From a virus: a stretch of DNA of 59,057 nt. A program made the translations under genes and the position numbers. The stretch lies in IMG/VR virus record IMGVR_UViG_3300031565_000032; one strand, given 5' to 3'. Of the stretch, positions 13,038 to 37,810 are shown piece by piece (positions within the stretch are counted from its first letter, which is position 1; each line of letters begins with the position of its first letter). The notes below the pieces were generated by a model. That model worked only from the letters and a program-made list of their open reading frames with translations, was not told the DNA's origin and did no database searches.

Positions 13038-13112
13038 AGAACTACGCCTGCTCGGTAGGCCAAAGGTTTTCCCATTCTGGGACAATATGATAGAAATATA
13101 TGCGGTGAAATA

Positions 13113-13937: not shown

Positions 13938-15267
13938 CTTAGAGTTACCATTGGCCTATTATCAGGATGATGCTGTTTATCATATTTGCGGTGATGCATT
14001 AAAGGTACTTCCCGAACTGCCGAGTGATAGCATTGACTTATTGGCTACTGACCCGCCGTATGGGATAGGGTTCATGGGGAAGGACTGGGACAAGGCGTTA
14101 CCCGATAAAAGGATATGGCAAGAATGTTTCAGGGTATTAAAGGACGGGTCGTTCGCCTTTGTGATGAGCATACCCAGAGCCGACTGTCTCTCAAGGATGA
14201 TTATAAGTTTAGAGGATGCGGGATTCATGGTGAACTTCACGCCTATCTTCTGGGCGTATGCCAGTGGATTCCCGAAGGCGCAGAATATCAGTAAAGCAGT
14301 GGATAAGAGGTTGGGGGCTGAAAGGGAAGTGGTGGGTGATGACCCCGAAGCCAAGCGAAGAAATAAAGCCACGACTAAATTTTCCAATCTCTACGGTGAT
14401 ATAAATGACTTACCCGTTATCCCCCTAACAGCTCCCGCCACTCCCCAAGCCAAAGCCCTAGACGGCAGTTATGGGGGATTCCAACCAAAACCCGCCGTTG
14501 AAATCATAATCGTGGCGATGAAGCCGTTAAGTGAAAAGACCTTTGTTGACCAGGCTCTTAGAAACAGGAAGGGTATCACGTGGCTGGATGACGGACGGAT
14601 ACCCTATGAGAGTGAAGTTGACAAAGACATACTAGAAGCAAAAGCCAGTAAGGTTTTTAGTGGCGTAAAACCTTTTGGTGGGGTTAATGGTATAGGTAGT
14701 GCCCTGAAGCCAAATAATCAAGGTCGTTTTCCAGCCAATCTCTTAGTCAGTGATGATGTACTGAATGACGGTAGGGTAACAAAGTCAACTGGCGGTAATC
14801 AGGCTAACAGAACCGATGCTATATGGGGTAATGCTAGATATTCTCCTGAGTCAAAAGGATTAGGCGACTCTGGTTCATTCTCCCGCTACTTTGATTTAGA
14901 CAAGTGGGCTGAAACACTCCCCTTTTTAATCGTACCAAAAGCCAGCAAGTCAGAGAAGAATAAATATCTTGATAAAGGAGAAACTCCATTCTTGCCATCG
15001 GGAGCATTTGAAACAAACGGCGGTGAAAAGAAACACACTTTAATGAGAAATAATCACCCCACCGTCAAGCCTCTTAAACTCATGTCCTATCTAATCATGC
15101 TAGGTTCAAGGGAAGGTGATATAGTCTTAGACCCCTTCGGCGGTTCGGGTACTACGGCACTGGCCAGCAAGCAGTTAAATCGGCGTTGCATTATCTCGGA
15201 GTTAAAAGAGCCGTATTGTGAAATCGCAGCTAAAAGATGTTCACAAAGTGTAATGAGGTTAGGATGA
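13924..15267 (+). CDS. DNA methyltransferase, N4/N6 beta-class (447 aa)
   Basis: DLLATDPPYGI (motif IV) near the N-terminus and IVLDPFGGSGTTALAS (motif I) near the C-terminus. Confidence 0.85.
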   Translation: MEWNNLELPLAYYQDDAVYHICGDALKVLPELPSDSIDLLATDPPYGIGFMGKDWDKALPDKRIWQECFRVLKDGSFAFVMSIPRADCLSRMIISLEDAGFMVNFTPIFWAYASGFPKAQNISKAVDKRLGAEREVVGDDPEAKRRNKATTKFSNLYGDINDLPVIPLTAPATPQAKALDGSYGGFQPKPAVEIIIVAMKPLSEKTFVDQALRNRKGITWLDDGRIPYESEVDKDILEAKASKVFSGVKPFGGVNGIGSALKPNNQGRFPANLLVSDDVLNDGRVTKSTGGNQANRTDAIWGNARYSPESKGLGDSGSFSRYFDLDKWAETLPFLIVPKASKSEKNKYLDKGETPFLPSGAFETNGGEKKHTLMRNNHPTVKPLKLMSYLIMLGSREGDIVLDPFGGSGTTALASKQLNRRCIISELKEPYCEIAAKRCSQSVMRLG

Positions 15268-16406
15268 ATAATATTGTACTTGTAACGCACTGTGTAGATA
15301 CCGAGGGGCCAATTGGTGGTGATGTCCGCAGGAGAGAAGACGGCTCACAGGAGTTCATGGGCACATGGGAAGAGATAATGGAGTCGTTGGGTGAACTTAC
15401 ATCTGACCGTTTCCGCCAATTACACGCTGATAGTTTCGGCAATCCCTATTTGTATAACTGGTTTCTCATGGACTTCACAGGGTTTAAGACAAATCCTAAG
15501 AACCGTGTTACGAAATATAATGATACCTATGACCACATCATTTCATTGCCTACTCAATTCGACCACCTGTACTGGCATTACCATCACCCCCCAACGAACG
15601 GGGTAGGCGACCAATGGAGTGGTGATTGGGATTCAAGCGATGAATATAATAATATTCTCTGCCACAGGTTGATTGACCGACATGATTTCCCCGAAGTGTT
15701 CCGTGCGGGCGGGACGATTGAAGACAACAAGTGCTCCCACTGGCTTGAGAAGAATATTATGGTTGACTATTCCAACCGTGTTTCTAAAAAGTCGTACCCC
15801 ACGGATAACATTTTTGACTTCAACTGGTTTGGTACACCATCACACCAGGGCTTTTATCATCCTTCTTTTGAAGACTTTACAAAGCCCGGGAGTATGAGGC
15901 GATATATTGTAAAATGCAATGATTTAAAATCTCGGTTATGCGAGGTAAATCAATACGATGTAGATGAATGCTTTGCTATGGCCAGATATTATGAACGGCC
16001 TATTTTACTGTCTTACTTCAGCCACGACCATCGAGATATGAGGGAAGAGACCGACTGCGTATATAAAATGCTTACCAAGGCGTCACTTAAATATAATATT
16101 AACTGGGAATACTGCGGTGCACTCGCGGCTGTCCAGCGATTAGACAATCTTGATATTAAAAAAGTATTTATGGATGTTGAAATAATTAGAGACATGATGG
16201 TCATTAAAACCGATAGCCCTATTTACCAGGATGAACCATTTGTTGCCGTAAAGTACGATAGAGAGTATGCCAGACTATACCCTATCAGGGTAGATGATTG
16301 GTGGTGGTGTAATATTCGGTACGCCTTAGATATTGGGGTTGCGGTAACTTCTTTAAGTGGGAATAAGACCGTGTGGAGTAAAAATGTTAGCTATTATACA
16401 GGCTAG
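15264..16406 (+). CDS. Hypothetical protein in the sugar island, possibly carbohydrate esterase/deacetylase-like (380 aa)
   Basis: ATGA overlap with the upstream stop. MNNIVLVTHCVDTEGP start, His-rich (YWHYHHPP, FSHDHRD). The functional guess is weak. Confidence 0.5.
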   Translation: MNNIVLVTHCVDTEGPIGGDVRRREDGSQEFMGTWEEIMESLGELTSDRFRQLHADSFGNPYLYNWFLMDFTGFKTNPKNRVTKYNDTYDHIISLPTQFDHLYWHYHHPPTNGVGDQWSGDWDSSDEYNNILCHRLIDRHDFPEVFRAGGTIEDNKCSHWLEKNIMVDYSNRVSKKSYPTDNIFDFNWFGTPSHQGFYHPSFEDFTKPGSMRRYIVKCNDLKSRLCEVNQYDVDECFAMARYYERPILLSYFSHDHRDMREETDCVYKMLTKASLKYNINWEYCGALAAVQRLDNLDIKKVFMDVEIIRDMMVIKTDSPIYQDEPFVAVKYDREYARLYPIRVDDWWWCNIRYALDIGVAVTSLSGNKTVWSKNVSYYTG

Positions 16407-17100
16407 AATGAGGTCGAAAAGGTTTAAGGGGAAGGTGCTTAAAGAGATAAGCGGTAAGCCTCTCCTGTGGCATGTTGTTAATCGTGTGCGACATTCCAAG
16501 ATTGATGATTTGGTTGTGGCTACTACCATTAATCCAGAAGACGACCCGATTGTAAGGTTTGCAGAAGAATACCATATTAAAACTTTCCGTGGTAGCGAGG
16601 AAGACGTGCTAGACCGTTTCTATCAAGCAGCCAAGAAAGTTAAGAATATCGTGCGGGTTTGCGGGGATAACCCATTGATTGACCCAGAGACAATTGATAC
16701 AGTTATTAATCTTTATGATGGATATGACTACTTTAGTAACAGAAGTTACCCCGAAGGGTTGCACGTAGAGGTCTTTTCTTTTGAAGTATTAGAGCAGGCA
16801 TGGAAGGAAGCCAAATCTTTTGAACGGGAGCATGTTACCCCATTTATTTATCATCATGACGAGCGTTTCAAGATAGGGGGCATTGTGGCGAATCTTCCCC
16901 CGATGAGATTGTGTGTAGACTATCCCTGTGATTTAGAATTAGTAAGAGAGGTCTACAAGAAGTTATGGCAGGGGGATATATTTAATACTGGTGACATCTG
17001 TCACCTATTTGAAGTTCACCCGGAATTACTGGAAATCAACAAAGGAATTCCACGGCTTGAAGGATACCATGAAAGTCAGCGTAATCATCACCTGTTATAA
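16384..17100 (+). CDS. Cytidylyltransferase, SpsF/COG1861-type (CTP_transf_3 family), 238 aa
   Basis: MLAIIQARMRSKRFKGKVLKEISGKPLLWHVVNRV...VVATT...RGSEEDVLDRF...VCGDNPLIDP. Confidence 0.8.
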   Translation: MLAIIQARMRSKRFKGKVLKEISGKPLLWHVVNRVRHSKIDDLVVATTINPEDDPIVRFAEEYHIKTFRGSEEDVLDRFYQAAKKVKNIVRVCGDNPLIDPETIDTVINLYDGYDYFSNRSYPEGLHVEVFSFEVLEQAWKEAKSFEREHVTPFIYHHDERFKIGGIVANLPPMRLCVDYPCDLELVREVYKKLWQGDIFNTGDICHLFEVHPELLEINKGIPRLEGYHESQRNHHLL

Positions 17101-17731
17101 CTTAGCGGATTATATTGACAGGGCTACACGGAGTTGCTTGAATCAGACTCTCCCGGAAGAGGAGTTTGAAGTTATAGTTGTTGACGATGCCAGCACGGAT
17201 TATAGCAGAAAAATTATTACAGGTCTTGGGCATTTTGTCAAACCGATTTTCCTGGAGAAGAATGTTGGGGTAGCTGAAGCATCTAACATCGGGATAGAAA
17301 AAGCTAAAGGTAAATACATTATTAGAGTTGATGGGGATGATTACATTAACCGGAACATACTTTTTATTATGTCGGAGATTCTTGAATGGAATGATGATAT
17401 CGGGTTCGTTTATTGCGACCAGATTAAAGTAGACGAGGGGGAAGAGAGAAGGGTTGAAATAAACACATTGGAAAAACTCTTAAATAATGGTGCTGGTGTG
17501 ATGTTCCGTAAGTCCTATCTTGAATCAATAGGATTATATGACCCCAAATTGAGAACCAGTGAAGATTATGATTTGATTCTCAGGTATATGAAGAATTTTA
17601 ACGGCTACCATTTGCGGTTGCCATATTACCGCTACTTCCAGAGGGAGGGCAGCCTAAGTAAGTCACCTGATAGGGCTACATTACAGAGTGAAATAAGGGG
17701 AAGGCAATGTCGGAATTCTTTGATAGATTAG
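17070..17731 (+). CDS. Family 2 glycosyltransferase (220 aa from ATG 17070)
   Basis: MKVSVIITCYNLADYIDRATRSCLNQTL..FEVIVVDDASTD...RVDGDD (DxD). Confidence 0.85.
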
Positions 17732-18780
17732 GGGAAAGAGCCTATATTATTGCCGAAGCTGGGGTGAATCATCTCGGCTCTCTGGAGCTTGGCGAAAGGT
17801 TAATCAGGGGGGCAAAGGAATCTGGGGCGGATGCCATAAAATTCCAAACCTATAAGGCTGAGAAGCTAACCACGAAAGATGCCCCTAGATTCTGGGATTG
17901 GGATGGTGAATGTGAAGGGTCTCAATATGACTCTTACTCACTTTTAGATTCCTTTGGCTATAAAGAGCATAAGAAGTTAAAGGAATTATGTGATAAATAC
18001 GGGATAGACTTTCTGTCTACCGCATTTGATAATGAAGCCGTTGACTACCTGGATAAGTTAGGCATGAAAGCCTTTAAGATAGCTTCTTGTGATTTAACCA
18101 ACCATCCCCTTTTAAAGTATATCGCCAAAAAGGGAAAGCCTATTTTACTATCCACCGGGGGCAGTACGATAAATGAGATTCACGAAGCCGTGGATATAAT
18201 CGAACCGATAAATAAAGAGATTGTCATTATGCACTGCACTCTATGTTATCCTACCAAAAATAAGGATGCAAATATAAATGCTATCAGTCATTTGAAGAAT
18301 GAGTTCCCCTATTTAATCGGGCTATCCGATCATACTTTGGGTATCTTAACACCTGTTATAGCCAGAACTTTAGGGGCGGTATTAATTGAGAAGCATTATA
18401 CGGTAGATAAAACTTTAGGTAAGAGCGCGGACCATTGTATATCGGTTGACACTGATGAATTAAAAAAACTTATTGAGCAGGTGAGAATATGTGAGACGCT
18501 TCTGGGGGGGAAGAAGCAAGTTGCGGATTGTGAAGTAAGAGCCAGGAAGTACGCACGGCGGAGTATCGTTTTAGCTAAAAATCTGTCAAAGGGGCGTATA
18601 CTGCGTGAAAAAGACCTGATATTTAAAAGGCCGGGGACGGGGATATCCCCCAGCCTGTTAGATGGAGTAATCGGTAAAAAAATTAACACTGATATTACCA
18701 AAGATTCTATATTGGCATGGAGTATGCTTGAAAGCGATAGAAAATATATAAACACTATAAGGATACCTTATGAGGATTAA
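17707..18780 (+). CDS. NeuB/PseI/LegI-family nonulosonic acid synthase 2, with SAF-type C-terminus (357 aa)
   Basis: YIIAEAGVNHLGSLELGERLIRGAKESGADAIKFQTYKAEKL, FKIASCDLTN, GLSDHTLG, LIEKHYT, SADHCISV. Confidence 0.85.
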   Translation: MSEFFDRLGERAYIIAEAGVNHLGSLELGERLIRGAKESGADAIKFQTYKAEKLTTKDAPRFWDWDGECEGSQYDSYSLLDSFGYKEHKKLKELCDKYGIDFLSTAFDNEAVDYLDKLGMKAFKIASCDLTNHPLLKYIAKKGKPILLSTGGSTINEIHEAVDIIEPINKEIVIMHCTLCYPTKNKDANINAISHLKNEFPYLIGLSDHTLGILTPVIARTLGAVLIEKHYTVDKTLGKSADHCISVDTDELKKLIEQVRICETLLGGKKQVADCEVRARKYARRSIVLAKNLSKGRILREKDLIFKRPGTGISPSLLDGVIGKKINTDITKDSILAWSMLESDRKYINTIRIPYED

Positions 18781-20209
18781 TGAAAAAGAAGGCGCAGAGG
18801 GAACACTATGGCGTGAATTGTGGGGAGCCTATATCGAGGCTACCAAATCCTTATGGAGTAAATTTCCCGAAGTTCTGGCCGGAGGCTTTTATCTTATTTC
18901 CCCCTATCATTCTGCTTTCGGATTAAAAACTAAAATGAGGAATTGTATTTTATTTATTCAATTCATCATATTATTCGTTCTCCACCCCTTGAAACTGAAT
19001 TTCACTTTTGACCCCTGTGATGCGGTTATATTTTGCTCTTCTACTAAACCAAGTATTCAGGAATCTATGTTACCTCTTGTAGCTCGGCTGGTAAAAAGGG
19101 GATATCGCTGCGCAGTTATCACTTCTTCCAATATGTATATATGGGTGGCTGATGTCTACCCTAAAATAAGTATTACCACTATTGTCAATTTCAGAAAGCG
19201 ATTAACCTACGGGTACAATCGGGTATCTTCATTCAAAATATTTTGCAGGGCATTATTGATAACAGCTATTTTGTATGCCCAAATCATCCGTAAACACCCC
19301 CTTGATTTTACTAAGTTACTCCACAATCCCCTTAAAGTTTTATACATGATGATGATGAGTTCCCACAAGTTGAGCGTTGCCGGCGATATACTCAGACAAC
19401 TCAAGCCCCGCCTTATGGTTACGATGCAGGAAAGGTTGCCGATTGCAGCGGAGTTGCTTTTATCTAAAGAAGCGGATAAATTCTATAAGATTCTGTATCA
19501 CTATGAAGAGCCGATGATATTCTCTGCCCCGATAATATCTCAAGAGGTTTGTGTTTGGAATCAGACAATGATAGATGAACTGTTAAAAGTCTCAGACCGA
19601 ACCCCGACTTATACTATTGTTGGGAGTCAGGAAATCAGCAATGCGCTCATAAATACTAAAGTAATTTCTAGTGGTGATAAACCTGTATTCCTTTACCTGT
19701 CACAGTTCGGGCAATTGAATGATGGTTTTACTGAGGCTCCTAGAGAAGCTATGTCATGGATAGAGTACGCGGCAAAGGAATGCAGTGATTGGTATTTTGT
19801 CATAAAGCGCAGAGCATTCCATTACGATGTGGTTGACCCTGGTGCAGAAAAACTTAAATACGATAATGTTTTCATTCCAGATGAGAAGATGGATTTTAAC
19901 CTTTGTATGCGTTGGTCTAATGTGGCTGTTGTGGGGTCTATCTATTCTATGGGGCTTTTTACTGTAGCAGGGATTGGGAAAGAATCATTTAGATTACTTG
20001 TCCCACACAGAACGAATAAACACCCTATCATTGATGAAATTTCAACCCCCGTTCATTCAAAAGAGGAGTTAGTAAAGTTGCTAAAAAACTTTACTCGTGG
20101 TAAAATATCAATGAAAGATTTAAAAGAGGATTCAAGATTCCCTTACAGGGGGCAAACTTTAAATAGAATGGAAAGTTTATGCCTGAAGCATTTAGGGAAT
20201 AAAGTATGA
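18770..20209 (+). CDS. Hypothetical 479-aa protein in the sugar island (candidate novel transferase)
   Basis: Overlaps both neighbours by 4-11 nt. Hydrophobic N-terminal segment (ILFIQFIILFVL). No family recognised by eye. Confidence 0.6.
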   Translation: MRINEKEGAEGTLWRELWGAYIEATKSLWSKFPEVLAGGFYLISPYHSAFGLKTKMRNCILFIQFIILFVLHPLKLNFTFDPCDAVIFCSSTKPSIQESMLPLVARLVKRGYRCAVITSSNMYIWVADVYPKISITTIVNFRKRLTYGYNRVSSFKIFCRALLITAILYAQIIRKHPLDFTKLLHNPLKVLYMMMMSSHKLSVAGDILRQLKPRLMVTMQERLPIAAELLLSKEADKFYKILYHYEEPMIFSAPIISQEVCVWNQTMIDELLKVSDRTPTYTIVGSQEISNALINTKVISSGDKPVFLYLSQFGQLNDGFTEAPREAMSWIEYAAKECSDWYFVIKRRAFHYDVVDPGAEKLKYDNVFIPDEKMDFNLCMRWSNVAVVGSIYSMGLFTVAGIGKESFRLLVPHRTNKHPIIDEISTPVHSKEELVKLLKNFTRGKISMKDLKEDSRFPYRGQTLNRMESLCLKHLGNKV

Positions 20210-21189
20210 AGACGATTTTAATCACAGGTATAGCAGGGTTTTTCGGGCATCATTTATTGGAGCATATTCTGAAGGATACCGATTGGAACGTTATTGGTTT
20301 AGAGGGGATAAACTATGCAGGGAATTTAGGGCGGGTTAAAGATATTGGTATCTTTACTGAAAATGAGCACCGTGTAAAGTTTGTCTGGCATGACTTACGT
20401 TCATCTTTTAATGATACAGTTATTAATCAAATAGGGCAGGTTGATTACATTGTTCACCTTGCAGCCGAGACGCATGTTGAAAGAAGTCTGATTGATTCAA
20501 GGCCATTTGTATTAAGTAACGTACTTGGGACTTGCCATCTTCTTGAATATACCAAGCACTATCAGAAGAAACTTACTAAATATATTCAATTCTCCACCGA
20601 TGAGGTTTTCGGACCCGCTCCACCTGGGGTCGATTACAAAGAATGGGACACACACAGACCATCTAACCCGTATTCCGGGGCTAAAGCCGGGGCTGATGAT
20701 TTAGCACTTTCCTTTGCGCACTCTTTCCAGATACCGATTATCATTACTCATACAATGAATATGTTTGGGGAGAGACAGCATGAGGAAAAGTTTCTGCCGA
20801 TGACAATCAAGAAAATACTCACAGGTGAGACGGTTACTATTCACGGGCAGAAGGATAGTATTAGTACCAGGAAATGGATTCATTGTAGGAATGTAGCTAA
20901 TGCGGTTACATTCTTATTGGCTAAGGGAGAGCCGGAGGATAAGTATAATATTGCGGGTGAAGAACTGGACGTTCTTAGTTTTGCCCAGTTCATATCTAAA
21001 GTTATAGGCAAGCCACTTATATATGAATTTCTGGATTTCCACGCCACCCGTCCAGGCCACGACCTCCGCTATAGTTTAGATGGTAGTAAACTTGCAAGCA
21101 TGGGTTGGAAACCCCCCATAGAGTTTCTGCCTTCATTGGAGAGGGTTATAAAATGGACACTGCAAAATAAACAATGGATAGGTCTTTAA
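20206..21189 (+). CDS. NAD-dependent sugar-nucleotide 4,6-dehydratase/epimerase (RfbB-like extended SDR), 327 aa
   Basis: ILITGIAGFFGHHL (GxxGxxG), STDEVFG, YSGAKAGADD (YxxxK). Confidence 0.85.
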   Translation: MKTILITGIAGFFGHHLLEHILKDTDWNVIGLEGINYAGNLGRVKDIGIFTENEHRVKFVWHDLRSSFNDTVINQIGQVDYIVHLAAETHVERSLIDSRPFVLSNVLGTCHLLEYTKHYQKKLTKYIQFSTDEVFGPAPPGVDYKEWDTHRPSNPYSGAKAGADDLALSFAHSFQIPIIITHTMNMFGERQHEEKFLPMTIKKILTGETVTIHGQKDSISTRKWIHCRNVANAVTFLLAKGEPEDKYNIAGEELDVLSFAQFISKVIGKPLIYEFLDFHATRPGHDLRYSLDGSKLASMGWKPPIEFLPSLERVIKWTLQNKQWIGL

Positions 21190-21196
21190 GGGGGGA

Positions 21197-21370
21197 ATGA
21201 TGAAACAGAATGTATGTGAATATCCTTGTTGGGATGGTGGGGTTTATATAGAAACTGCATGGCAAGATGATATTCGTCTGAAGAAGCGGTTCGCCGTAGA
21301 GAGGAAAGAGAAGATTGCAGCCATGAACTCTATAAAGAGATTCTTTTGGAGACTTCTTATAAATGACTAA
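21197..21370 (+). CDS. Possible small protein (57 aa)
   Basis: MMKQNVCEYPCWDGGVYIETAWQDDIRLKKRFAVERKEKIAAMNSIKRFFWRLLIND; overlaps the next start by 8 nt. Confidence 0.4.
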   Translation: MMKQNVCEYPCWDGGVYIETAWQDDIRLKKRFAVERKEKIAAMNSIKRFFWRLLIND

Positions 21371-22058
21371 TCTATTTGATTTAACTGGTAAAAAGGCAGT
21401 AGTGACTGGCGGTAAGGGTCTTTTAGCTCCTATATGGTGCGAGACTTTAAGAACGGCTGGTGCAGATGTTCATATAATAGATTTGCCAATGGATGATGTC
21501 AGGGATAGAGAGAAATTAAATTTCCTTGCTGGTCATTGGTCTCCTGTTGATATTATCGTAAACAACGCTGCCATAGACAACCCGCCGACTTCAAAAGCTA
21601 CATTCTTTGGGAACTGTAAAGAAATATTAGACGTTAATCTACAGGGTGCGGTTAATGTCTGCGAGGCTTTCATACCTTCAATGATTAAAAACGGCGGGGG
21701 AGTGATTGTAAACATAGGTTCTATTCAAGGATATGGTGGTGCTGATTACAGGAACTATCCAGAGGACTTTGAGAAACCAATAGGATACAATTTAAGTAAG
21801 TGGGGTCTAAGAGGTTTAAGTAAATCAATCTGCGTTCAATACGGTAGATACAACATACGGGCAGTCACACCGTCATTTAGTGCTTACGATGGTGGGAAGT
21901 TAGAACCTGCATTCCTAGAGAAGTTCCTGCACAATATCCCTCTTAATAGGTGTGTCTCTAAGGAGAGTCTGCAAATGACGCTCTTATATGCTGTATGCTG
22001 TCCCGAACTTACAGGCGTAGACTGGAGAGTAGATGGAGGTTTAGGCGCATGGGCGTGA
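21363..22058 (+). CDS. Short-chain dehydrogenase/reductase (231 aa)
   Basis: KAVVTGGKGLL, NNAAI, YNLSKWG (YxxxK). Confidence 0.8.
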   Translation: MTNLFDLTGKKAVVTGGKGLLAPIWCETLRTAGADVHIIDLPMDDVRDREKLNFLAGHWSPVDIIVNNAAIDNPPTSKATFFGNCKEILDVNLQGAVNVCEAFIPSMIKNGGGVIVNIGSIQGYGGADYRNYPEDFEKPIGYNLSKWGLRGLSKSICVQYGRYNIRAVTPSFSAYDGGKLEPAFLEKFLHNIPLNRCVSKESLQMTLLYAVCCPELTGVDWRVDGGLGAWA

Positions 22059-22060
22059 AA

Positions 22061-22195
22061 ATGATAAAACTACCTGTTTATAAAGATATGGATTCACCAT
22101 TAGAATATATAAGATTAGAACTTAAAGATGAAGTATGGGATAAATTAAAAGAATACGCACCTCCCCTTACAATTGTAGAGGATATAAATGACTAA
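22061..22195 (+). CDS. Possible small acidic protein (44 aa)
   Basis: MIKLPVYKDMDSPLEYIRLELKDEVWDKLKEYAPPLTIVEDIND; overlaps the next start by 8 nt. Confidence 0.4.
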   Translation: MIKLPVYKDMDSPLEYIRLELKDEVWDKLKEYAPPLTIVEDIND

Positions 22196-22892
22196 TTGTG
22201 TAGCCCTAATCCCCTGTCGCAGTGGCTCTAAGAGAATACCTGATAAGAATATTAAACTCTTAGGGGGCAATCCTCTTATTTACTGGACGATTAAAGCTGC
22301 TTTAGAGAGTAAGGTATTTGATGATGTTATAGTTTCAACCAATTCAGATAAGTACGCCGACATTGCCAGAAGCTACGGGGCTGAAGTGATAATGAGACCT
22401 GAAGAGTACGCTACTGATATATCCCCTGACATCCAATGGGTTAAATACACCTTAGACAACGTACAATCAATATCTGGGCGTTTTTATGATTGCTTTAGTA
22501 TCTTACGACCTACCTCACCTTTTCGTACACCAGAAACGATACAAAGGGCATGGCGAGAATTTACAGCACAGGAGGTAGATTCACTGAGGGCTGTAGAGAA
22601 GTGTAGCCAGCACCCTTGCAAGATGTGGCGTATTGAAAACAAATATATGATGTTACCACTATACCCAGAGATGCACAGCCAACCCTATCAGACATTACCT
22701 GAAATATATATTCAAAACGCCTCTCTTGAAATAGCATGGACTAGAGTTTTAGATAAAGATTCTATATCAGGGTTTTATGTAATGCCCTTCTTTACTCAGG
22801 GATATGGAGGCTTTGATATAAACACAGAGATGGACTGGCAGATTGCCGAGGAGTTAATACGCACTAATAAAGTGAAATTACCGATGATTTAA
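22188..22892 (+). CDS. neuA: Acylneuraminate (CMP-nonulosonate) cytidylyltransferase, NeuA-type (234 aa)
   Basis: VALIPCRSGSKRIPDKNIKLLGGNPLIYWTIKAALES...VIVSTNS...ILRPTSPFR. Confidence 0.85.
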   Translation: MTNCVALIPCRSGSKRIPDKNIKLLGGNPLIYWTIKAALESKVFDDVIVSTNSDKYADIARSYGAEVIMRPEEYATDISPDIQWVKYTLDNVQSISGRFYDCFSILRPTSPFRTPETIQRAWREFTAQEVDSLRAVEKCSQHPCKMWRIENKYMMLPLYPEMHSQPYQTLPEIYIQNASLEIAWTRVLDKDSISGFYVMPFFTQGYGGFDINTEMDWQIAEELIRTNKVKLPMI

Positions 22893-29568: not shown

Positions 29569-30774
29569 ATGGAAACTTTAACATTAGAACAAATCGCAGA
29601 AATAGCAACTAAGGCAGCTAATGAAGCGGTTGAAAAATTAAAGGAGCCGGAGAAAAAGGAAATTCACGTAGAGGTCATTGCTAACCCTGAAGATAAGTTA
29701 CTGAAAGACCCGAAGGGTGGCTTTAAGAGTATGGGGCACTTCTTTACTGACCTCATCAGGGCAGAGGGTCCAGGCAATGCTCCCCCGCAAACCCTCAAAG
29801 ACTACGATAGGGCACTCAGAAAGACAGCCGGATACATGGAAGAGGGCGACCTTAGTCAGGGTGGCTATTTAGTCCCCGAAGAGTTCAGGGCGGTTCTTTT
29901 ACAGACAGCTATGGAAACTTCCATAGTGAAGTCAAGGGCAACAAATATCCCGATGGCAACCAACAGAGTTGTCATACCAGCCTTGATAGATGACGACCAT
30001 TCCACTGATTATTTTGGTGGGGTTGTTATCTACAGGACAGAAGAGAAGGGTGAAAAGACTCCCAAGAATCCAGTATTCGGTAAAATTGGGCTGACCTTAC
30101 ACAAATTAACAGGGTTATGCTATATAACTGATGAACTTTTAACGGATTCAGTTATATCTATTGAACCTATAGTTAGAAGCACATTCGGACAGGCCATAGC
30201 GTTTGTGCAGGACTACGACTTCTTGAGGGGGTCTGGTGCTAACCAGGCACTGGGAGTTTTCAATGCAGCCAACCCTTCACTCATCACGGTATCCAAAGAA
30301 ACGAACCAGGTAGCCGACACCATTGTCTTTGAGAACATCGTTAAGATGTGGCAGAGAATGTACCCTGCCGGACACGCAAAGGCAGTATGGATAGCCAACA
30401 TCAATTGTTTCCAGCAGTTGGCTTCAATGAGCCTGCCGTCTGGTACTGCTGGGGTGCCCGTATGGATGCCTGCCGGTGGTATTGCCGGAGCACCATTCCA
30501 GACCCTGATGGGCAGACCTCTAATCTTCACCGAGAAAATGGCCACGCTAGGTGACCTGTATGACATAGGCTTAGTTGACTTTTCTCAATATCTTATCGGT
30601 GAAAAGGGTGGTGGAGTTAATATGGCTTCATCTATCCATGTCAGGTTCATCTATGATGAGGTTGCTTTCAGGTTCGTTATGAGGTATGATGGCCAGCCTT
30701 GGTGGCTCTCTACACTAACCCCGAAGGCGGGAAGCACCTTGAGTCCGTTTATCACTTTGGCCGAGCGTGCCTAG
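29569..30774 (+). CDS. Major capsid protein, HK97 fold (401 aa)
   Basis: Follows the protease. GGYLVPEEF motif and an N-terminal delta-domain-like helical region. Confidence 0.9.
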   Translation: METLTLEQIAEIATKAANEAVEKLKEPEKKEIHVEVIANPEDKLLKDPKGGFKSMGHFFTDLIRAEGPGNAPPQTLKDYDRALRKTAGYMEEGDLSQGGYLVPEEFRAVLLQTAMETSIVKSRATNIPMATNRVVIPALIDDDHSTDYFGGVVIYRTEEKGEKTPKNPVFGKIGLTLHKLTGLCYITDELLTDSVISIEPIVRSTFGQAIAFVQDYDFLRGSGANQALGVFNAANPSLITVSKETNQVADTIVFENIVKMWQRMYPAGHAKAVWIANINCFQQLASMSLPSGTAGVPVWMPAGGIAGAPFQTLMGRPLIFTEKMATLGDLYDIGLVDFSQYLIGEKGGGVNMASSIHVRFIYDEVAFRFVMRYDGQPWWLSTLTPKAGSTLSPFITLAERA

Positions 30775-30799: not shown

Positions 30800-31294
30800 A
30801 TGGGAGTATATACATTTAGTCAAGATAATCTGATAATCCCGCTGAACTTAGCAGGTGCAACTGCTGGGACTGCTGCCGAGATGGATTCCTTTAACATGAG
30901 GGGGTATGACCAGGCAACTGTAATCTTCACTCAAAGTGCCTCAGTAGCTGGGAATAATGTGCTAACAATGGAGACTGGTGCTTCAAATAGTGCGGATACT
31001 AGTGATGCCACATTCCATTATAGGTGGGGTAGTGCTACTGTTGGTGCTTCTAACTCTGATAAATTAACCGCTGATGCCACAGCCTCTACCCTGACCATGA
31101 CAGCTACAACCTATCAGGGCAAGATGCTAGTCATAGAACTGCACGCTGACGAACTGCCCAAGTCCGGTGAAACAGTCTATTCTTGGGTAACTCCAGACAT
31201 CGATGGCACTGCTACTAAGGGTTTTATTAGTGGGATTGCAATCCTAAGTAAACCCCGCTATGCAAAGGCTGTAATGCCTACAGCTGTCAGTTAA
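30800..31294 (+). CDS. Putative head-associated structural protein, Ser/Thr/Ala-rich (164 aa)
   Basis: AAGGAGGAAATGAA then ATG; lies directly after the capsid gene. Confidence 0.6.
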   Translation: MGVYTFSQDNLIIPLNLAGATAGTAAEMDSFNMRGYDQATVIFTQSASVAGNNVLTMETGASNSADTSDATFHYRWGSATVGASNSDKLTADATASTLTMTATTYQGKMLVIELHADELPKSGETVYSWVTPDIDGTATKGFISGIAILSKPRYAKAVMPTAVS

Positions 31295-31378
31295 GGAAGA
31301 GAGGGATGATGAGAGTTTTCATGTTTGGTTGTCCTATTGAATATAGTGATGAACCAATCAAGCCTAAAAGAAAATATA

Positions 31379-31407
31379 GGCGGAAGGGGACAAAAGCCCC
31401 TTCCGCC
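31379..31407 (+). terminator. Perfect 11-bp GC-rich hairpin downstream of the capsid genes (no U-tract; transcript-stability or attenuator element)
   Basis: GGCGGAAGGGG-acaaaag-CCCCTTCCGCC. Confidence 0.4.
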
Positions 31408-31492
31408 CCACGGAAAGATAAAATGGTGCATAGTGCGCCTATTGTAAAAGGGGGAACCACTCCCTAATAAACTATAAGTATGGAGGAATCAA

Positions 31493-31837
31493 ATGGTAGC
31501 TAATGTTAAATCAAGCTGGAGGTCGGGTAATCTGGTCTTTGAACATGTTGTGTCCGGTGCTGCAATCCACTATGGAATCAGTGGCACAGGGTTAGATGTT
31601 AAATTCTGGGGAGACACAGCCAGCGTATACATGATGTGGGATTACAGTGCGGATAATTGGGTCTGTGCATCTCAAACCCATATAGATATGGCCGCCGATA
31701 AAGCTATGTTAATCTTTAAGGCTGGTAGTGCTTGTGGTGATAGCCCAACAGCCGATGCGGAAACAGGGTGGCTTAACGCATATATTACTTCTGAAACTGC
31801 CACAAATCTAGTCTATATACCGTACTATACTACTTAA
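31493..31837 (+). CDS. Small head-module protein, paralog A (114 aa), putative decoration protein
   Basis: Close paralog of 31852..32199 (VANVKSSW.SGNLVFEHVVSGAAIHYG..GTGLDVKFWGDTASVYM.WDYSADN.VCASQT). Confidence 0.75.
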   Translation: MVANVKSSWRSGNLVFEHVVSGAAIHYGISGTGLDVKFWGDTASVYMMWDYSADNWVCASQTHIDMAADKAMLIFKAGSACGDSPTADAETGWLNAYITSETATNLVYIPYYTT

Positions 31838-31851
31838 AAAGGAGGAAACAA

Positions 31852-32199
31852 ATGCCTGTAGCTAATGTGAAATCCAGTTGGCAGTCTGGGAATTTAGTCT
31901 TTGAGCATGTAGTTTCCGGGGCTGCTATTCATTACGGGGTAAATGGTACGGGTCTTGACGTTAAGTTTTGGGGTGATACGGCTAGTGTATATATGCTTTG
32001 GGATTACAGTGCGGATAACCTAGTTTGTGCATCACAAACGAACATAGATATGTCGGCTGCTAAGCCCATGTTAATCTTCAAAGTTGGAACTTCGGCAAGT
32101 TCTAACCCAACGACTTATCCTGAAGCTGGTTGGCTTAATGTGCATATCGCCACTGACGCAGCGTCTTCTATAGTCTACGTACCGTACTACGTTTCATAA
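31852..32199 (+). CDS. Small head-module protein, paralog B (115 aa), putative decoration protein
   Basis: See paralog A; AAAGGAGGAAACAA then ATG. Confidence 0.75.
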   Translation: MPVANVKSSWQSGNLVFEHVVSGAAIHYGVNGTGLDVKFWGDTASVYMLWDYSADNLVCASQTNIDMSAAKPMLIFKVGTSASSNPTTYPEAGWLNVHIATDAASSIVYVPYYVS

Positions 32200-32220
32200 A
32201 ATAAAAGGAGGAGTTAACGT

Positions 32221-33837
32221 TTGAAAGGGAATGATGTGAAAGACTTAATCTTGTTAGCAAAGGGGCACACAAGAAGGGAGTGCCCATTCGATGGAGCCGA
32301 AGTGTGGGGAGTTAATGATGTCGGTAGTTTCCCCGAATTCAAGGGGAAAAAGATTGACAGGCTATTCACCTTTGACCCAAGGTCGGATGAGTTCATCAAA
32401 GATATGAAGGCAGTAGCCCCTATTACCAGTTGGCGTGATTATGCTGATGTCAAATACCCGATAGATGAACTAATTGAACACTTCGGGACCAGGTACTTTA
32501 CCAACACAATAAGTTTTATGGTTGCCCTGGCCATCTATGAGGGGTTCACTCGTATTAGAATGTATGGGGTGGATGCTCCCTATGGGGGTATCTACTTCAT
32601 GGAAAAGAGTGGTCTTGAATACTGGATAGGCAGAGCGCAACAAGCTGGTATGGAGATAATACCCTGTAAAGAATCACATATCTTAAGAACCCATGATGAC
32701 CAGTTGTATGGGGAGAGAAAAGGGAAAAGGCTCATCCCTCTTTATTTATCAGAGCGTATGATAATCATAAATACATTACCAACAAAGGGAAACTATGATA
32801 CGATTTACCGTTCTGGTCTTGTAAGGTGGTTCGTTGGCCTGAAGGATAAGGAGCGCATAGAGCACAAGGTTGAACTCGGCCATAGTACGGAAGGGCATTT
32901 AGCTTATAAGTGTGACCACGAATTCCTCACCAAAGTCTATTTCACGGAGTGGGCACTTGAATACCTGATAGACTTGCTAAGGAATATGGAAAGAGAAGGG
33001 AAATTACCAATCAATATGGTCTCTGTCTATGAGAAGTTAGTTCTCTGTAACACACCTGATAAGGTAGGGGACACTAACGAAAAGGAAGTTAGGGTTTCCT
33101 ATATCTTGCCCACCAAGAACAGGGAAAATATCATCAGGAAATCCTTAGAAGATATCAGAAAACTCCTTACACCAAAAGATGAATTGATTGTCGTTGATGG
33201 GAGCACTAACAATGATACATTGAAAGTTCTTGAGGAATATGCGGATGTAATAACTAGAATTATTCCCGTAGAAAATGATGGGCATGCTCATGGTCTTAAC
33301 ATAGGTATTATGGAATCCAGAGGTGAGTATGTCAAACCACTTGCTGATGATGATGTAGTTTCACCGGAGGAGATGGAGAGGGCGATAGATTATTTGAATG
33401 AAAACAGGGATATCGACCTGCTCGTTTGTGGGGGTGTCAAGCAACAGGGCGTACATCAGTTCGTAACAGTAGCCCCAAAGAATTACGGTCATGACGTAAA
33501 GGATGTATTCACATACGGGGCTTGCATGGTTGGGTTTATACATAGACGTGATTCATTTAGTAAGTTAGGACTGTATGACACTTCTTATGTTGATATTGAC
33601 CAAGAAATTGCAACAAGGGCAATTAGCATGGGACTTAAAGTTAAATTCTTCCCGGGTAAGCATTATTTCCATGCTACTCATACAAACAGCACCGGGTATC
33701 TTCAATTAGCTCAATGGAATAAGGACAACCGTAATCTAATAAAACAATATTGTCCTAGAGTTTTCTACTACAAGTATTTAATAGGCAATAAGATTCGCTC
33801 TTTCAAATCCAATATAAGGGGATGGCTTACTTCTTAA
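32221..33837 (+). CDS. Two-domain glycosyltransferase: N-terminal Rossmann-like domain reminiscent of DUF115/Maf and CstII-type sialyltransferases, plus C-terminal GT2 domain (538 aa, TTG start)
   Basis: AAGGAGGAG sits 7 nt before the TTG. N-terminus: AEVWGVNDVG...DRLFTFDP...YFTNTISFMVALAIYEGFTRIRMYGVD. C-terminus: VSYILPTKNRENIIRKSLEDI...LIVVDGSTNND...PLADDDV. Confidence 0.65.
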   Translation: MKGNDVKDLILLAKGHTRRECPFDGAEVWGVNDVGSFPEFKGKKIDRLFTFDPRSDEFIKDMKAVAPITSWRDYADVKYPIDELIEHFGTRYFTNTISFMVALAIYEGFTRIRMYGVDAPYGGIYFMEKSGLEYWIGRAQQAGMEIIPCKESHILRTHDDQLYGERKGKRLIPLYLSERMIIINTLPTKGNYDTIYRSGLVRWFVGLKDKERIEHKVELGHSTEGHLAYKCDHEFLTKVYFTEWALEYLIDLLRNMEREGKLPINMVSVYEKLVLCNTPDKVGDTNEKEVRVSYILPTKNRENIIRKSLEDIRKLLTPKDELIVVDGSTNNDTLKVLEEYADVITRIIPVENDGHAHGLNIGIMESRGEYVKPLADDDVVSPEEMERAIDYLNENRDIDLLVCGGVKQQGVHQFVTVAPKNYGHDVKDVFTYGACMVGFIHRRDSFSKLGLYDTSYVDIDQEIATRAISMGLKVKFFPGKHYFHATHTNSTGYLQLAQWNKDNRNLIKQYCPRVFYYKYLIGNKIRSFKSNIRGWLTS

Positions 33838-33846
33838 GAGGATAAT

Positions 33847-34011
33847 GTGAAACACTTTACATTAAAGAGACTGCAAAGCGATAAGGATGATTTGGAAAAA
33901 CAATACCAGAATCTTAAAAGACAACATAAAAACATTGGGGAACAAGCATTGATGGTTCAGGGGGCTATCAAATATATCAATCAAACGATAGAGAAGTTAA
34001 CCGGGGAATAG
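33847..34011 (+). CDS. Possible coiled-coil protein (54 aa, GTG start)
   Basis: VKHFTLKRLQSDKDDLEKQYQNLKRQHKNIGEQALMVQGAIKYINQTIEKLTGE. Confidence 0.4.
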   Translation: MKHFTLKRLQSDKDDLEKQYQNLKRQHKNIGEQALMVQGAIKYINQTIEKLTGE

Positions 34012-34068
34012 CTGGTCGGAAACGGCCAGCACATCATCCCTAAGGCGGGGGGTGAGATTCCCCCCGCC
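34011..34068 (+). terminator. Two tandem GC-rich hairpins after the glycosyltransferase gene
   Basis: GCTGGTCG-GAAA-CGGCCAGC (34011-34030, GNRA loop) and GGCGGGGGG-tgagatt-CCCCCCGCC (34044-34068). No clear U-tract. Confidence 0.45.
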
Positions 34069-34092: not shown

Positions 34093-34380
34093 ATGAGTAT
34101 AAGACCTAATTCTATAACTAGAATGACTGCCACGGGCGATTTAACGGGTGGTCCCGCAGAGCTTCTATGGTTGAACATAGCTAACAGTGCCACGCTCGGC
34201 CTGGCTGCGTCCTTATTTGACGCCTCAACCCCTACTAGTGGGGCAAGAATGACTATCGAAGTAGGGGCGGATGATACATACTTCGCCCACTTTGGAAGTG
34301 GCTATATCTGGAATACCAAAGTCCATGTTGGGACAGTGGACGCAGGATTAATAATTACAGGTGCTTTTGTAAGTGCATAA
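34093..34380 (+). CDS. Hypothetical structural-module protein (95 aa)
   Basis: TAAGGAGGTATTAAATAA then ATG. Confidence 0.7.
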   Translation: MSIRPNSITRMTATGDLTGGPAELLWLNIANSATLGLAASLFDASTPTSGARMTIEVGADDTYFAHFGSGYIWNTKVHVGTVDAGLIITGAFVSA

Positions 34381-34632: not shown

Positions 34633-34809
34633 ATGTCATTTGAAACTCTATTAAATATGATTAAGAAGGTTCGAGAGCAAGAGGTTGAAGAACTGACCTT
34701 ATGCCCCGATTGCGATTATCCTTTAAGTAAAAAGACTGACGGAACTTTACACTGTCTATACTGTGGGTATTCATGGCCGAGGAGAATTAGTAATGCCAGA
34801 AATCGGTGA
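34633..34809 (+). CDS. Small zinc-ribbon protein, tandem copy 2 (58 aa)
   Basis: MSFETLLNMIKKVREQEVEELTLCPDCDYPLSKKTDGTLHCLYCGYSWPRRISNARNR. Confidence 0.45.
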   Translation: MSFETLLNMIKKVREQEVEELTLCPDCDYPLSKKTDGTLHCLYCGYSWPRRISNARNR

Positions 34810-35254
34810 GATAAAAGCGGGTAAGTATATAGGGTATAGCCCATTTTCAGATAATAGATATATCTGGCTCGCCTGTATTGATTGTGGCAAAAAACGATGG
34901 GTTGGTTACTCAAGCCTTAAGCGTTCTAACTATCATGGCAGATGCAAAAGTTGTGATGCCAAAGCTATACCAAGACCATCGCAATATAGAGGGAGGCATT
35001 TATCAACCGAGGGTTATGTCATGGTTCAACTTCCCCCAAGTGATTTCTTCTACCCTATGACTGAAAAGACAGGATATATAAAAGAGCATAGGTTGATTAT
35101 GGCAAGACATTTGAAAAGATGTTTGATGCCATTTGAGGTGGTGCATCATAAAGAAAAGCCAATTAATGATAATCGCATAAGCAATCTATCTCTGGAAACT
35201 GCTGGAAGTCATGTTGCTTATCATAATAGTCATGGGGCATATAGGGGGCGTTAG
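34793..35254 (+). CDS. HNH homing endonuclease (153 aa from ATG 34793)
   Basis: GYIKEHRLIMARHL...VVHHKEKPINDNRISNLSL; N-terminal CIDCGK...CKSC zinc pair. Confidence 0.8.
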   Translation: MPEIGEIKAGKYIGYSPFSDNRYIWLACIDCGKKRWVGYSSLKRSNYHGRCKSCDAKAIPRPSQYRGRHLSTEGYVMVQLPPSDFFYPMTEKTGYIKEHRLIMARHLKRCLMPFEVVHHKEKPINDNRISNLSLETAGSHVAYHNSHGAYRGR

Positions 35255-36073
35255 ATGAATTTATATGCTGATGTAACAACTTTGAAGAGTAGCGCCTATT
35301 TAGATAAAAGTGCCACGACTGATAATTTATACCTCCGTGACCTATTAGAAGCATCTTCACGAATGGAAGACGATTACACAGGAAGGCACTTCTACGCCTA
35401 TAACGGCACTCAATATCTCGATGGTGCCGGTACTACGATGTGGACTCCTGATATCCTTTCTATATCTACATTAAAAACTGACGAAGATGATGACGCAACC
35501 TTTGAAAATACCCTAAGTGTTAATACGGATTATTATTTATACCCCTTGAATTCAGTCGTAAAGACAAGGGCGGTGATTAGAAACCAGGGTTCTTATTCGA
35601 GTTTTGCCAATGGTATCAGAAAGGGTGTGGAGATTACAGGTGTGTTTGGTTATGGGAATGGAACATCATCCACCCCCTATGTTGATAGTGGTCTTATCTT
35701 ATCCTCTTCTATAGGTGCTACGGATACCACATGCACTGTTAGCGCGAGTGGTAATTTTTCCATAGGCCAAACTTTATTAATGGATAGCGAGCAATGTTAT
35801 ATAGACAATATGTCTTCAAGCACCCTAACAATAGAAAGAGGTATAAACGGAACGTCAGCTACCACTCATTCTGCTACAACTACACTTTACATATACGAAT
35901 ATCCAGAACCTATTAAAGAGGCATGTTTAATTCAGGCTATGCGGTGGTGGTCACGTAAAGATTCAGCCTTTGCGGATGTTGTCGGAGTGCCTGAACTCGG
36001 AACTGTAATAGCCAAGAAAGGGCTTGACCCGGACGTGATAGAAATCTTGAGACCTTATAAGAGATATGCTTAA
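35255..36073 (+). CDS. Head-tail connector (gp6-like N-terminus) with a Ser/Thr-rich extension (272 aa)
   Basis: YADVTTLKSSAYLDKSATTDNLYLRDLLEASSRMEDDYTGRHFY matches the gp6-like connector pattern. Confidence 0.65.
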   Translation: MNLYADVTTLKSSAYLDKSATTDNLYLRDLLEASSRMEDDYTGRHFYAYNGTQYLDGAGTTMWTPDILSISTLKTDEDDDATFENTLSVNTDYYLYPLNSVVKTRAVIRNQGSYSSFANGIRKGVEITGVFGYGNGTSSTPYVDSGLILSSSIGATDTTCTVSASGNFSIGQTLLMDSEQCYIDNMSSSTLTIERGINGTSATTHSATTTLYIYEYPEPIKEACLIQAMRWWSRKDSAFADVVGVPELGTVIAKKGLDPDVIEILRPYKRYA

Positions 36074-37078: not shown

Positions 37079-37810
37079 ATGGGTAGAACTCACGCTAAGA
37101 ATTCTGAAATATTTGTAGATGAATTTGACTTTTCAGGTTTAGTAAATGCTATAGATATAGCTATAGAAAATCCTGTGGCAGAGGTTACGGCATTCAGTGA
37201 TACGGATGCCACATTCGTAGATGGGAAACCAAGTTTCTCTATTACACTCAATGGTTTATATTCTACCGATTATGATGCCGAGATGTTTGCTGATTTAACT
37301 TCTTCAAACAGGTTACTTACAGTTTCACCAGGGGATTCCGCTACAGCAGGTGGGGTAGCTTATTTCGGACAGGGGGATATCACTTCAAGGCCTATAACAT
37401 CAAACATAGGTGAGGCCATTCTTTTAAATACAACATGGAATGGTAATAAACCATTGACCAGAGGGAAAATTCTTTACAGAGGGATTGCCACCGCCAGTGT
37501 AGCCGGTACGGGTTATCATTTGGGTGCGGTTGCATCAACAGAACAGTTAATAGCTTTCCAGCATGTTATGAGTGCGACTGCTGGTACTACATTGATTACC
37601 ATTATAGAAAGCGATAGCACTTCGGCTTTCGGTATTGCTTCCACGGCGGTAACATTTACCACAGTTTCCACTTCCGATATTGCTGAAAGGAAAGCTACTG
37701 CCGGGGCTATGACAGATACATGGTATAGAACACACATGGAAATAACAGGCGCATCGGCATCTTATGACATATTAGTGGTTGCGGGGATAGCACCCCTCGG
37801 CTCATCTTAG
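37079..37810 (+). CDS. Major tail (tube) protein paralog 1, with a ~110-aa C-terminal extension (243 aa)
   Basis: MGRTHAKNSEIFVDEFDFSGLVNAIDIAIENPVAEVTAFSDT... shares its N-terminal domain with 37820 and 38243. Confidence 0.7.
   Translation: MGRTHAKNSEIFVDEFDFSGLVNAIDIAIENPVAEVTAFSDTDATFVDGKPSFSITLNGLYSTDYDAEMFADLTSSNRLLTVSPGDSATAGGVAYFGQGDITSRPITSNIGEAILLNTTWNGNKPLTRGKILYRGIATASVAGTGYHLGAVASTEQLIAFQHVMSATAGTTLITIIESDSTSAFGIASTAVTFTTVSTSDIAERKATAGAMTDTWYRTHMEITGASASYDILVVAGIAPLGSS

Follow-up and report, generated by a model that had tools for sequence, protein, structure and literature searches.

The virus record IMGVR_UViG_3300031565_000032 of IMG/VR, a 59,057-nucleotide (nt) stretch of DNA that was analyzed at its full length (the window), is a tailed phage whose head module carries a gene for a two-domain glycosyltransferase (GT). 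Here we establish the identities of the domains of this protein, the remote homology of its N-terminal core to the sialyltransferase CstII, the conserved place of the corresponding gene family beside the capsid gene, and the association of that family with nonulosonate genes. We propose, with moderate confidence, that the protein is soluble and made late, with a CstII-like core that adds a cytidine monophosphate (CMP)-activated ulosonic acid and a C-terminal GT2 domain that adds a nucleoside diphosphate (NDP)-activated sugar, on Ser/Thr residues of a head protein. Indirect evidence lends good support, short of proof, to late glycosylation of head proteins with such an ulosonic acid; which donor and acceptor are used, which transfer comes first, and that the product ends up on the virion are all inferred.

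The GT gene is a 538-amino-acid (aa) open reading frame (ORF) on the plus strand. An earlier account of the window, made from its letters and without database searches (the sequence-only reading), had assigned it a TTG start and a strong AGGAGG ribosome-binding site, and both are there in the sequence, the latter at 32206-32211 (plus strand), 9 nt 5' of the TTG. An in-frame GTG at 32236 gives MKDLI..., the same as the N termini of the homologues, so that translation may begin 5 codons farther on, with nothing else changed. The protein has no transmembrane helix (maximal Kyte-Doolittle 19-residue mean, 0.95), and this lack of a hydrophobic segment implies a cytoplasmic protein, unlike the GtrB-type conversion enzymes. 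An identical protein (P0001) is present on 10 contigs. Its parts are as follows.

32221-33837, plus strand: the two-domain GT (ORF list and sequence).
32221-32730, plus strand: GT residues 1 to 170, CstII/Maf-like Rossmann core, or N core (hhalign, AlphaFold2 [AF2] model, Foldseek).
32731-33060, plus strand: GT residues 171 to 280, alpha/beta accessory subdomain (AF2 model).
33091-33837, plus strand: GT residues 291 to 538, GT2 (GT-A) domain (PF00535, NCBIfam, and Protein Data Bank [PDB] sequence matches).

The N-terminal half bears the motifs WGVND (residues 29 to 33; 32305-32319), DRLFTFDP (46 to 53), and NTISFMVALAIYEGFTRIRMYGVD (95 to 118), all on conserved columns of the family and all as the sequence-only reading had described them; further landmarks of the core are YGVD at 32563-32574 and Tyr125 at 32593-32595. 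A profile of 54 N-core sequences aligned to CstII, whose query sequence was checked against PDB 2wqq, with an hhalign probability of 96.3% (P = 1.8e-9) over 130 columns covering CstII residues 1 to 165, while the controls (one reversed and 15 shuffled CstII sequences) all gave P ≥ 0.057; the comparison covered CstII and not the sequence profiles of thiamin pyrophosphokinase (TPK), MptE, or Maf. The alignment pairs N32 with N31 of CstII, T96 with S132, G116 with G152, D118 with D154, and Y125 with Y162, and their conservation across 165 family members amounts to 83% (N32), 94% (T/S96), 99% (G116), 79% (D118), and 86% (Y125). We take the donor-binding and catalytic residues of CstII to be N31, N51, R129, S132, Y156, Y162, and H188, with N31, S132, and Y162 presumably contacting the CMP-sugar. 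The His or Asp at position 52 of the core lies at most one residue from CstII N51, and CstII R129 falls in an alignment gap.

Family models were silent on this half of the protein. Residues 1 to 290 gave no Pfam match at E ≤ 10 and hence no sign of membership in the GT42 sequence family; PF01973 (DUF115/MptE-like) was matched neither by the full protein (E ≤ 1), nor by the N-terminal half (E ≤ 10), nor by the 54 family members (E ≤ 0.01). A PDB profile search of the N domain (E ≤ 10) returned only chance tailspike matches at E of about 1, and library scans, Pfam and PHROG among them, gave nothing relevant for nine stand-alone homologues and the 54 family members.

Structure prediction was more telling. 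An initial 290-residue model (predicted local distance difference test score [pLDDT], 84; predicted template-modeling score [pTM], 0.60) gave weak and mixed Foldseek matches to SteA (top), CstII, TPK, and Maf; it was superseded by a 180-residue AF2 model of the core computed from a deeper alignment (pLDDT, 91.6; pTM, 0.87). With this core model, the top 7 Foldseek matches in the PDB are all CstII (E = 6e-5 to 7e-4; query-normalized template-modeling score [TMq], 0.50 to 0.62), followed by TPK (E = 8e-4), SteA (E = 1e-3), and Maf (5mu5; E = 3.2e-3, probability 1.00, TMq 0.54), with the MptE-type HPPK 8sd5 at E = 2e-2 and TMq 0.53. Among the predicted viral structures of BFVD, the nearest are uncharacterized proteins of uncultured tailed phages, and next come phage proteins of about 700 aa named MptE-like (E = 2.9e-5 to 4e-4; TMq 0.60) and a mimivirid DUF115 protein. 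The accessory subdomain is modeled with a pLDDT of about 87 to 96 over residues 171 to 270, but Foldseek gave no informative structural match for it; it is reached (profile position of about 275) in some family members only and possibly serves in acceptor binding. Judged by profile and predicted fold, the N core is related to CstII and, more weakly, to Maf/MptE-like proteins, of which it is a much-reduced version without the lid, and by hidden Markov model (HMM) it belongs to neither family. The resemblance to DUF115/Maf and CstII-type enzymes suggested by the sequence-only reading thus stands by profile for CstII and by fold for CstII and Maf, and a structural tie to the Maf and sialyltransferase folds was found by structure prediction and Foldseek, whereas membership in the DUF115 HMM family does not hold.

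The C-terminal half had been called a clear GT2, and so it is: PF00535 matches residues 293 to 402 with 70.1 bits against a cutoff of 23.3 (E = 2.8e-19), many NCBIfam GT2 families are matched, and the motifs VSYILPTKNR, VVDGSTNND, and DDD (residues 376 to 378; 33346-33354) are all found. The ADDD at residues 375 to 378 aligns with DHDD of 8bz4, and the DD is kept in homologues. PDB sequence matches include 5tz8 and 6h1j (which we take to be TarS and TarP), the heparosan synthase 8vh7, the chondroitin synthase 2z86, and GmaR (22ao).

The link of the GT to the phage head, which the sequence-only reading had drawn from this single locus, is supported by a position survey that pooled 77 viral loci anchored on the N domain and 80 anchored on NeuB. 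In this set, 53 N-domain genes start 10 to 3610 nt (median, about 1.1 kb) 3' of an HK97 capsid gene that runs in the same direction, a stereotyped place that recurs across 25 enzyme clusters and 18 capsid clusters (50% identity). Among the first two 3' neighbors of the capsid-adjacent N-domain genes (149 ORFs), head-tail connector families are the commonest, followed by CMP-transferases, epimerases/dehydratases (including the PseB/CapD type), short-chain dehydrogenases, radical S-adenosylmethionine (SAM)/SPASM proteins, NeuB, GNAT, and FkbM. Three two-domain relatives share the order capsid, a protein of about 165 aa, a protein of about 150 to 177 aa, and GT, followed 3' of the GT by a radical SAM/SPASM protein, an unknown protein of about 350 aa, FkbM-type and other methyltransferases, and the adaptor.

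The juxtaposition of the GT and a radical SAM/SPASM gene was seen at L004:11527-16732, L082:11665-15354, L083:11556-16469, and L084:11683-12543; in the first three of these loci, the unknown of about 350 aa and FkbM-type and class-I methyltransferases come next, inside the head module. This cassette, which is absent from the window, suggests that the glycan or the acceptor peptide is modified further.

In the window, the late genes around the GT are ordered as follows.

26493: portal, a late gene.
28376: prohead protease, a late gene.
29569-30774, plus strand: HK97-type major capsid protein (PF05065, E = 9.8e-44).
30800-31294, plus strand: 164-aa Ser/Thr/Ala-rich head-module protein (Ser plus Thr, 23%).
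31493-31837 and 31852-32199, plus strand: tandem 114- and 115-aa proteins (72% identical; Ser plus Thr, 18%).
33847-34011, plus strand: 54-aa ORF directly 3' of the GT, known only from copies of the same phage.
34011-34068, plus strand: two GC-rich hairpins (RNA fold).
34093-34380: 95-aa ORF between the GT and the adaptor.
34763-35254: HNH endonuclease, after the head accessory genes and before the adaptor.
35255-36073: head-tail adaptor (phrog_442).
3' of the adaptor: neck, tail terminator, and major tail protein (37079-37810).

The GT gene indeed lies between the duplicated small head proteins and the connector genes, as first described, with three more ORFs preceding the adaptor at 35255. 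The two hairpins said to close it off do exist (folding energy, -45 kcal/mol; z = -4.7; none of 200 shuffles equally stable), but they are located after the 54-aa ORF rather than at the stop codon of the GT; they have no T-run, and a terminator scan did not call them as intrinsic terminators. A further 12-bp GC-rich hairpin with a T-run lies on the minus strand at 31378-31408, between 30800-31294 and 31493, where it overlaps a 53-aa plus-strand ORF (31306-31467) that follows the 164-aa gene, and it could modulate read-through inside the head operon. HNH genes are likewise dispersed, several at a time, in the same module of relatives (L004). By capsid protein, the nearest cultured phages are at most 43% identical, and their hosts are unrelated.

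Three Ser/Thr-rich families recur between the capsid gene and the enzyme, each with about 23 to 24% Ser plus Thr: one of about 160 aa that includes the product of 30800, one that includes those of 31493 and 31852, and one of about 262 aa, whose N terminus is related to the family of about 160 aa (hhalign, 87%). No match was found in Pfam, PHROG, or PDB for any of the three. In a control set of 56 capsid-anchored loci with at least 2.5 kb of 3' sequence, the family of about 160 aa or that of about 262 aa follows the capsid gene in 36, while just 3 carry the enzyme. Proteins of these families belong to the ordinary outfit of the head module, to which the enzyme is an optional addition. The 164-aa protein was considered as a dedicated partner or acceptor and rejected as specific, its family being usual in control loci without the enzyme; the proposal that the product of 30800 is an acceptor remains plausible, while its specific coupling to the enzyme does not hold. 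We regard the small Ser/Thr-rich proteins and the capsid protein itself as plausible acceptors. Farther downstream, the head-tail adaptor (22% Ser plus Thr) has a Ser/Thr-rich insertion at about residues 148 to 214, which matches tail/virion-protein PHROGs apart from the adaptor domain, and the major tail protein contains 23.5% Ser plus Thr; both are possible additional acceptors.

The second line of contextual evidence concerns the donor. The sequence-only reading had tied the GT to CMP-sugars, and a strong two-way neighborhood association with NeuB and CMP-synthetase genes supports this. An N domain is present in 29 of the 80 NeuB-anchored viral loci versus 3 of the 56 capsid-anchored controls (Fisher P = 2e-5), and NeuB or a CMP-synthetase lies within 10 kb in 12 of the 77 N-domain-anchored loci versus 0 of 79 capsid-anchored controls (Fisher P = 1e-4); since the flanks were unequal (10 kb versus 6 kb) and some loci are near duplicates, these P values are indicative only. 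A more distant relative has the order NeuB, CMP-synthetase, four unknowns, GT, and radical SAM/SPASM. The window itself encodes an island of sugar genes.

9130-22892, plus strand: the sugar island (Pfam, NCBIfam).
9130-10164 and 17707-18780, plus strand: two NeuB/PseI-like synthases (Pfam, NCBIfam).
10157-12181, plus strand: NanM-like sugar O-methyltransferase domain in a 674-aa protein.
16357-17100 (KdsB-like) and 22188-22892 (PseF-like), plus strand: CMP-sugar synthetases (Pfam, NCBIfam).
16991-17731, plus strand: a second GT2.
20206-21189, plus strand: 4,6-dehydratase.
21363-22058, plus strand: short-chain dehydrogenase/reductase.

All of the island enzymes score below equivalog cutoffs, so the exact sugar is not fixed by them; the island is probably the donor supply for the GT. 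Interleaved with it are two genes for N6/N4-type DNA methyltransferases (7023-8441 and 13924-15267), and a class-I methyltransferase gene (13113-13937) also lies in this region.

In the mechanism that we propose, the GT would act in the cytoplasm, decorating head proteins ahead of or in the course of assembly. The N core (residues 1 to 170) would transfer a CMP-activated ulosonic acid, either a nonulosonate supplied by the phage NeuB and CMP-synthetase or possibly a Kdo-like sugar, and the C-terminal GT2 would add a second, NDP-activated sugar, for which the heptose-like and deoxy-sugar gene clusters that house stand-alone GT2 relatives point only weakly to a donor. Together the two domains would make a glycan no shorter than a disaccharide, attached to Ser/Thr of a protein associated with the capsid; the candidates are the major capsid protein and the small Ser/Thr-rich proteins whose genes separate the capsid gene from the GT. 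Family members whose loci have no such sugar genes might use host CMP-Kdo or host nonulosonates.

Several observations weigh against this proposal. The N-terminal half of the GT has no PDB sequence match and no Pfam (E ≤ 10), NCBIfam, or PHROG model; the alignment stops short of the catalytic His188 of CstII; and TPK, SteA, and MptE fit the fold of the core model nearly as well as CstII does. No NeuB or CMP-synthetase gene occurs within 10 kb in 65 of the 77 N-domain-anchored loci, and in the three closest two-domain relatives, radical SAM/SPASM and methyltransferase genes adjoin the GT in place of nonulosonate genes. The 164-aa family often occurs where the enzyme is absent, which leaves no one protein marked out as the acceptor; the two-domain gene did not turn up in any cultured phage; and viral neuABC clusters have been published as agents of host-surface alteration (10.1101/655167).

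This last point leads to the alternative that the GT uses the island sugars to remodel a glycan of the host envelope (lipopolysaccharide/O-antigen, capsule, teichoic acid, S-layer, or flagellin glycan) in an auxiliary or superinfection-exclusion role. The affinities of the GT2 half speak for it, inasmuch as its best PHROG matches are "GtrB-like O-antigen conversion" proteins, its best NCBIfam and PDB matches are polysaccharide and teichoic-acid GT2s, and its stand-alone relatives sit in cellular sugar/polysaccharide clusters. Against this, the protein has no membrane segment, unlike GtrB; its gene lies on the late strand within the head-to-connector block; and a place kept in 53 cases and 18 capsid clusters is hard to square with a host-directed accessory gene. 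A change of the host surface late in the lytic cycle would also seem to bring no evident gain. We consider a host-envelope target unlikely.

Alternatively, the N domain might be no GT at all but an MptE/TPK/SteA-like nucleotide-binding module, acting as a (pyrophospho)kinase on a sugar or protein or as a noncatalytic acceptor binder, with the GT2 alone carrying out transfer. The closeness of the Foldseek scores of TPK, SteA, and the MptE-type HPPK to those of CstII is what such a module would predict, as are the lack of any GT family HMM match to the N domain and of aligned counterparts for both the catalytic base His188 and Arg129 of CstII. Yet the sole sequence-level relation found, in a comparison that did not extend to TPK and MptE profiles, is to CstII, and it includes the D154/Y162 donor-phosphate loop; the association with CMP-sugar synthetase and NeuB fits a user of CMP-sugars; and the family shows no conserved Asp-rich motif for Mg/ATP of the GDxDS type. 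On balance we find a role outside glycosyl transfer rather improbable for the N domain. To our knowledge, ulosonic acids are unknown on DNA, which counts against a last alternative, base hypermodification of phage DNA rather than of protein by the GT. Although some phage GTs are known to hypermodify DNA (10.1101/2023.12.21.572611) and the island contains or adjoins the two N6/N4 DNA methylase genes, no hydroxymethyl-pyrimidine pathway was found among the scanned genes and the conserved partner of the GT is the capsid gene and not replication genes, making this most improbable.

Head-protein glycosylation by a CstII-like enzyme can be set beside several known systems. CstII and CstI, the lipooligosaccharide sialyltransferases of Campylobacter jejuni (GT42; 1RO7 and 2P2V), share with the N core a single Rossmann-like GT-A-variant core; CstII and the N core have in common beta1 and its loop, the xxN motif (N31/N32), a Thr or Ser before the long helix, the G-x-D motif, and a nearby Tyr (Y162/Y125). 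A CMP-sugar donor is predicted for the N core by this likeness. The two are only about 13 to 15% identical, and the N core, at about 170 residues versus about 260 in CstII, has no lid domain; unlike CstII, it is phage encoded, lies beside capsid genes, and is fused to a GT2, and its acceptor is likely a protein rather than lipooligosaccharide. Maf (motility-associated factor; PF01973; 5MU5) belongs to the same fold class and would be the best functional analogy, in that the proposed activity would likewise take pseudaminic or legionaminic acid from a CMP-sugar and O-link it to Ser/Thr of a structural protein made in abundance. Maf proteins O-link these sugars from CMP-sugars to flagellin (see also PMC5420450). 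They are proteins of about 600 to 700 aa with flanking acceptor-binding domains, as against the roughly 170 aa of the N core, and their target is the flagellum, whereas that of the GT would be the virion. Two-domain bacterial GTs, such as the chondroitin polymerase K4CP (2Z86) and the heparosan synthase (8VH7), both matched in sequence by the GT2 half, likewise place two GT domains on one soluble chain and make a mixed glycan; they pair two GT2s and make polymers, while the GT of the window pairs a CstII-like core with one GT2.

We know of no ulosonic-acid sugars reported in mycobacteriophage virion glycans. In mycobacteriophages Che8, Corndog, and Myrna, phage GTs modify the phages' own capsid and tail-tube proteins (Freeman et al. 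2023, as described in PMC12363180), and this is the only precedent found for self-glycosylating tailed phages (PMC12363180 and PMC12691614). The likeness lies in phage GTs that act on their own virion, as the GT of the window would. Sialyltransferase-like GTs and phage virion glycosylation are thus both known kinds, of which the GT gene would, inferentially, be a variation; a literature search found no account of nonulosonate-decorated phage capsids or of the N-domain family.

That family is mainly a phage one. Database searches recovered about 20 two-domain homologues (39 to 55% identical) on phage-sized contigs, as well as N domains (about 300 aa) and GT2s that stand alone. When the profile of the stand-alone N domain was run on 1.84 billion cluster representatives, 4218 proteins matched at E ≤ 1e-3, and the stricter limit of E ≤ 1e-10 left 1599; the best 150 of the 4218 matches are mostly 170 to 230 aa long and cover profile positions of about 6 to 167 only. 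With no Pfam or PHROG model for the 54 family members, the N core constitutes a large unannotated family. One stand-alone member, P0029, bears a precomputed Pfam accession (PF27659) absent from the results of the local scan, and Pfam may have gained an entry for the family very recently.

Individual members have peculiarities of their own. P0027, P0029, and P0030, all stand-alone N domains, have a zinc-ribbon-like CxxC...CxxC insertion between core strands 2 and 3 with weak DnaJ-CXXCXGXG matches. Tandem N-domain paralogues, two or three in number, occur at L016:8809-11581, L113:8526-11676, L132:6170-7542, and L067:2-1098 and suggest several linkages or acceptors. When longer homologues were inspected for fusion partners, one candidate proved to be an intein and another gave no match. 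The intein, which has a LAGLIDADG-like segment, interrupts a 582-aa N-domain homologue of IMGVR_UViG_3300044580_000035 (L090:18035-19783) in the context ...YGVDMAVD/CLAPE...SHN/TEYHY... (slashes mark its borders), between GVD and the conserved Tyr (the CstII D154-Y162 loop), and this exact location implies that the loop is functionally critical; its PDB matches are chains deposited as replicative DNA helicase (6rix and 6bs8), which we take to be DnaB mini-inteins. Among GenBank phages, the sole match to the N domain, a weak one, is in Microcystis phage Mvi-Yong1342-1 (PP496355.1; L001:3635-4438; phmmer, 3e-11). The gene is annotated as a "type 11 methyltransferase," a label that looks like a misannotation, and it lies just 5' of the small terminase gene and not 3' of the capsid gene. 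A pattern search of a genome collection found no genome with a first pattern set and three short contigs of metagenome-assembled genomes with a second.

The recurrence of the N domain beside capsid genes and genes for sialic-acid-like sugars suggests sugar-coated phage heads. Self-glycosylation of tailed-phage virions is established for only a few mycobacteriophages, where it blunts antibody recognition, and viral neuABC genes are usually read as modifiers of the host surface (10.1101/655167). We tentatively suggest, somewhat short of even confidence, that the N domain defines an unannotated family of about 4200 clusters of miniature CstII-like ulosonic-acid transferases, whose place after the capsid gene reveals a common but unrecognized trait, namely, sialic-acid-like head coats made from phage or host CMP-sugars, and that many viral neuB and neuA "auxiliary metabolic genes" serve the virion rather than the host surface. 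If this is true, widespread viral neuB/neuA genes would be reassigned from remodeling of the host surface to decoration of the virion, about 4200 representative clusters of unannotated proteins, mostly from uncultured phages, would gain a predicted function, and a minimal sialyltransferase-like scaffold of about 170 aa would become available for glycoengineering.

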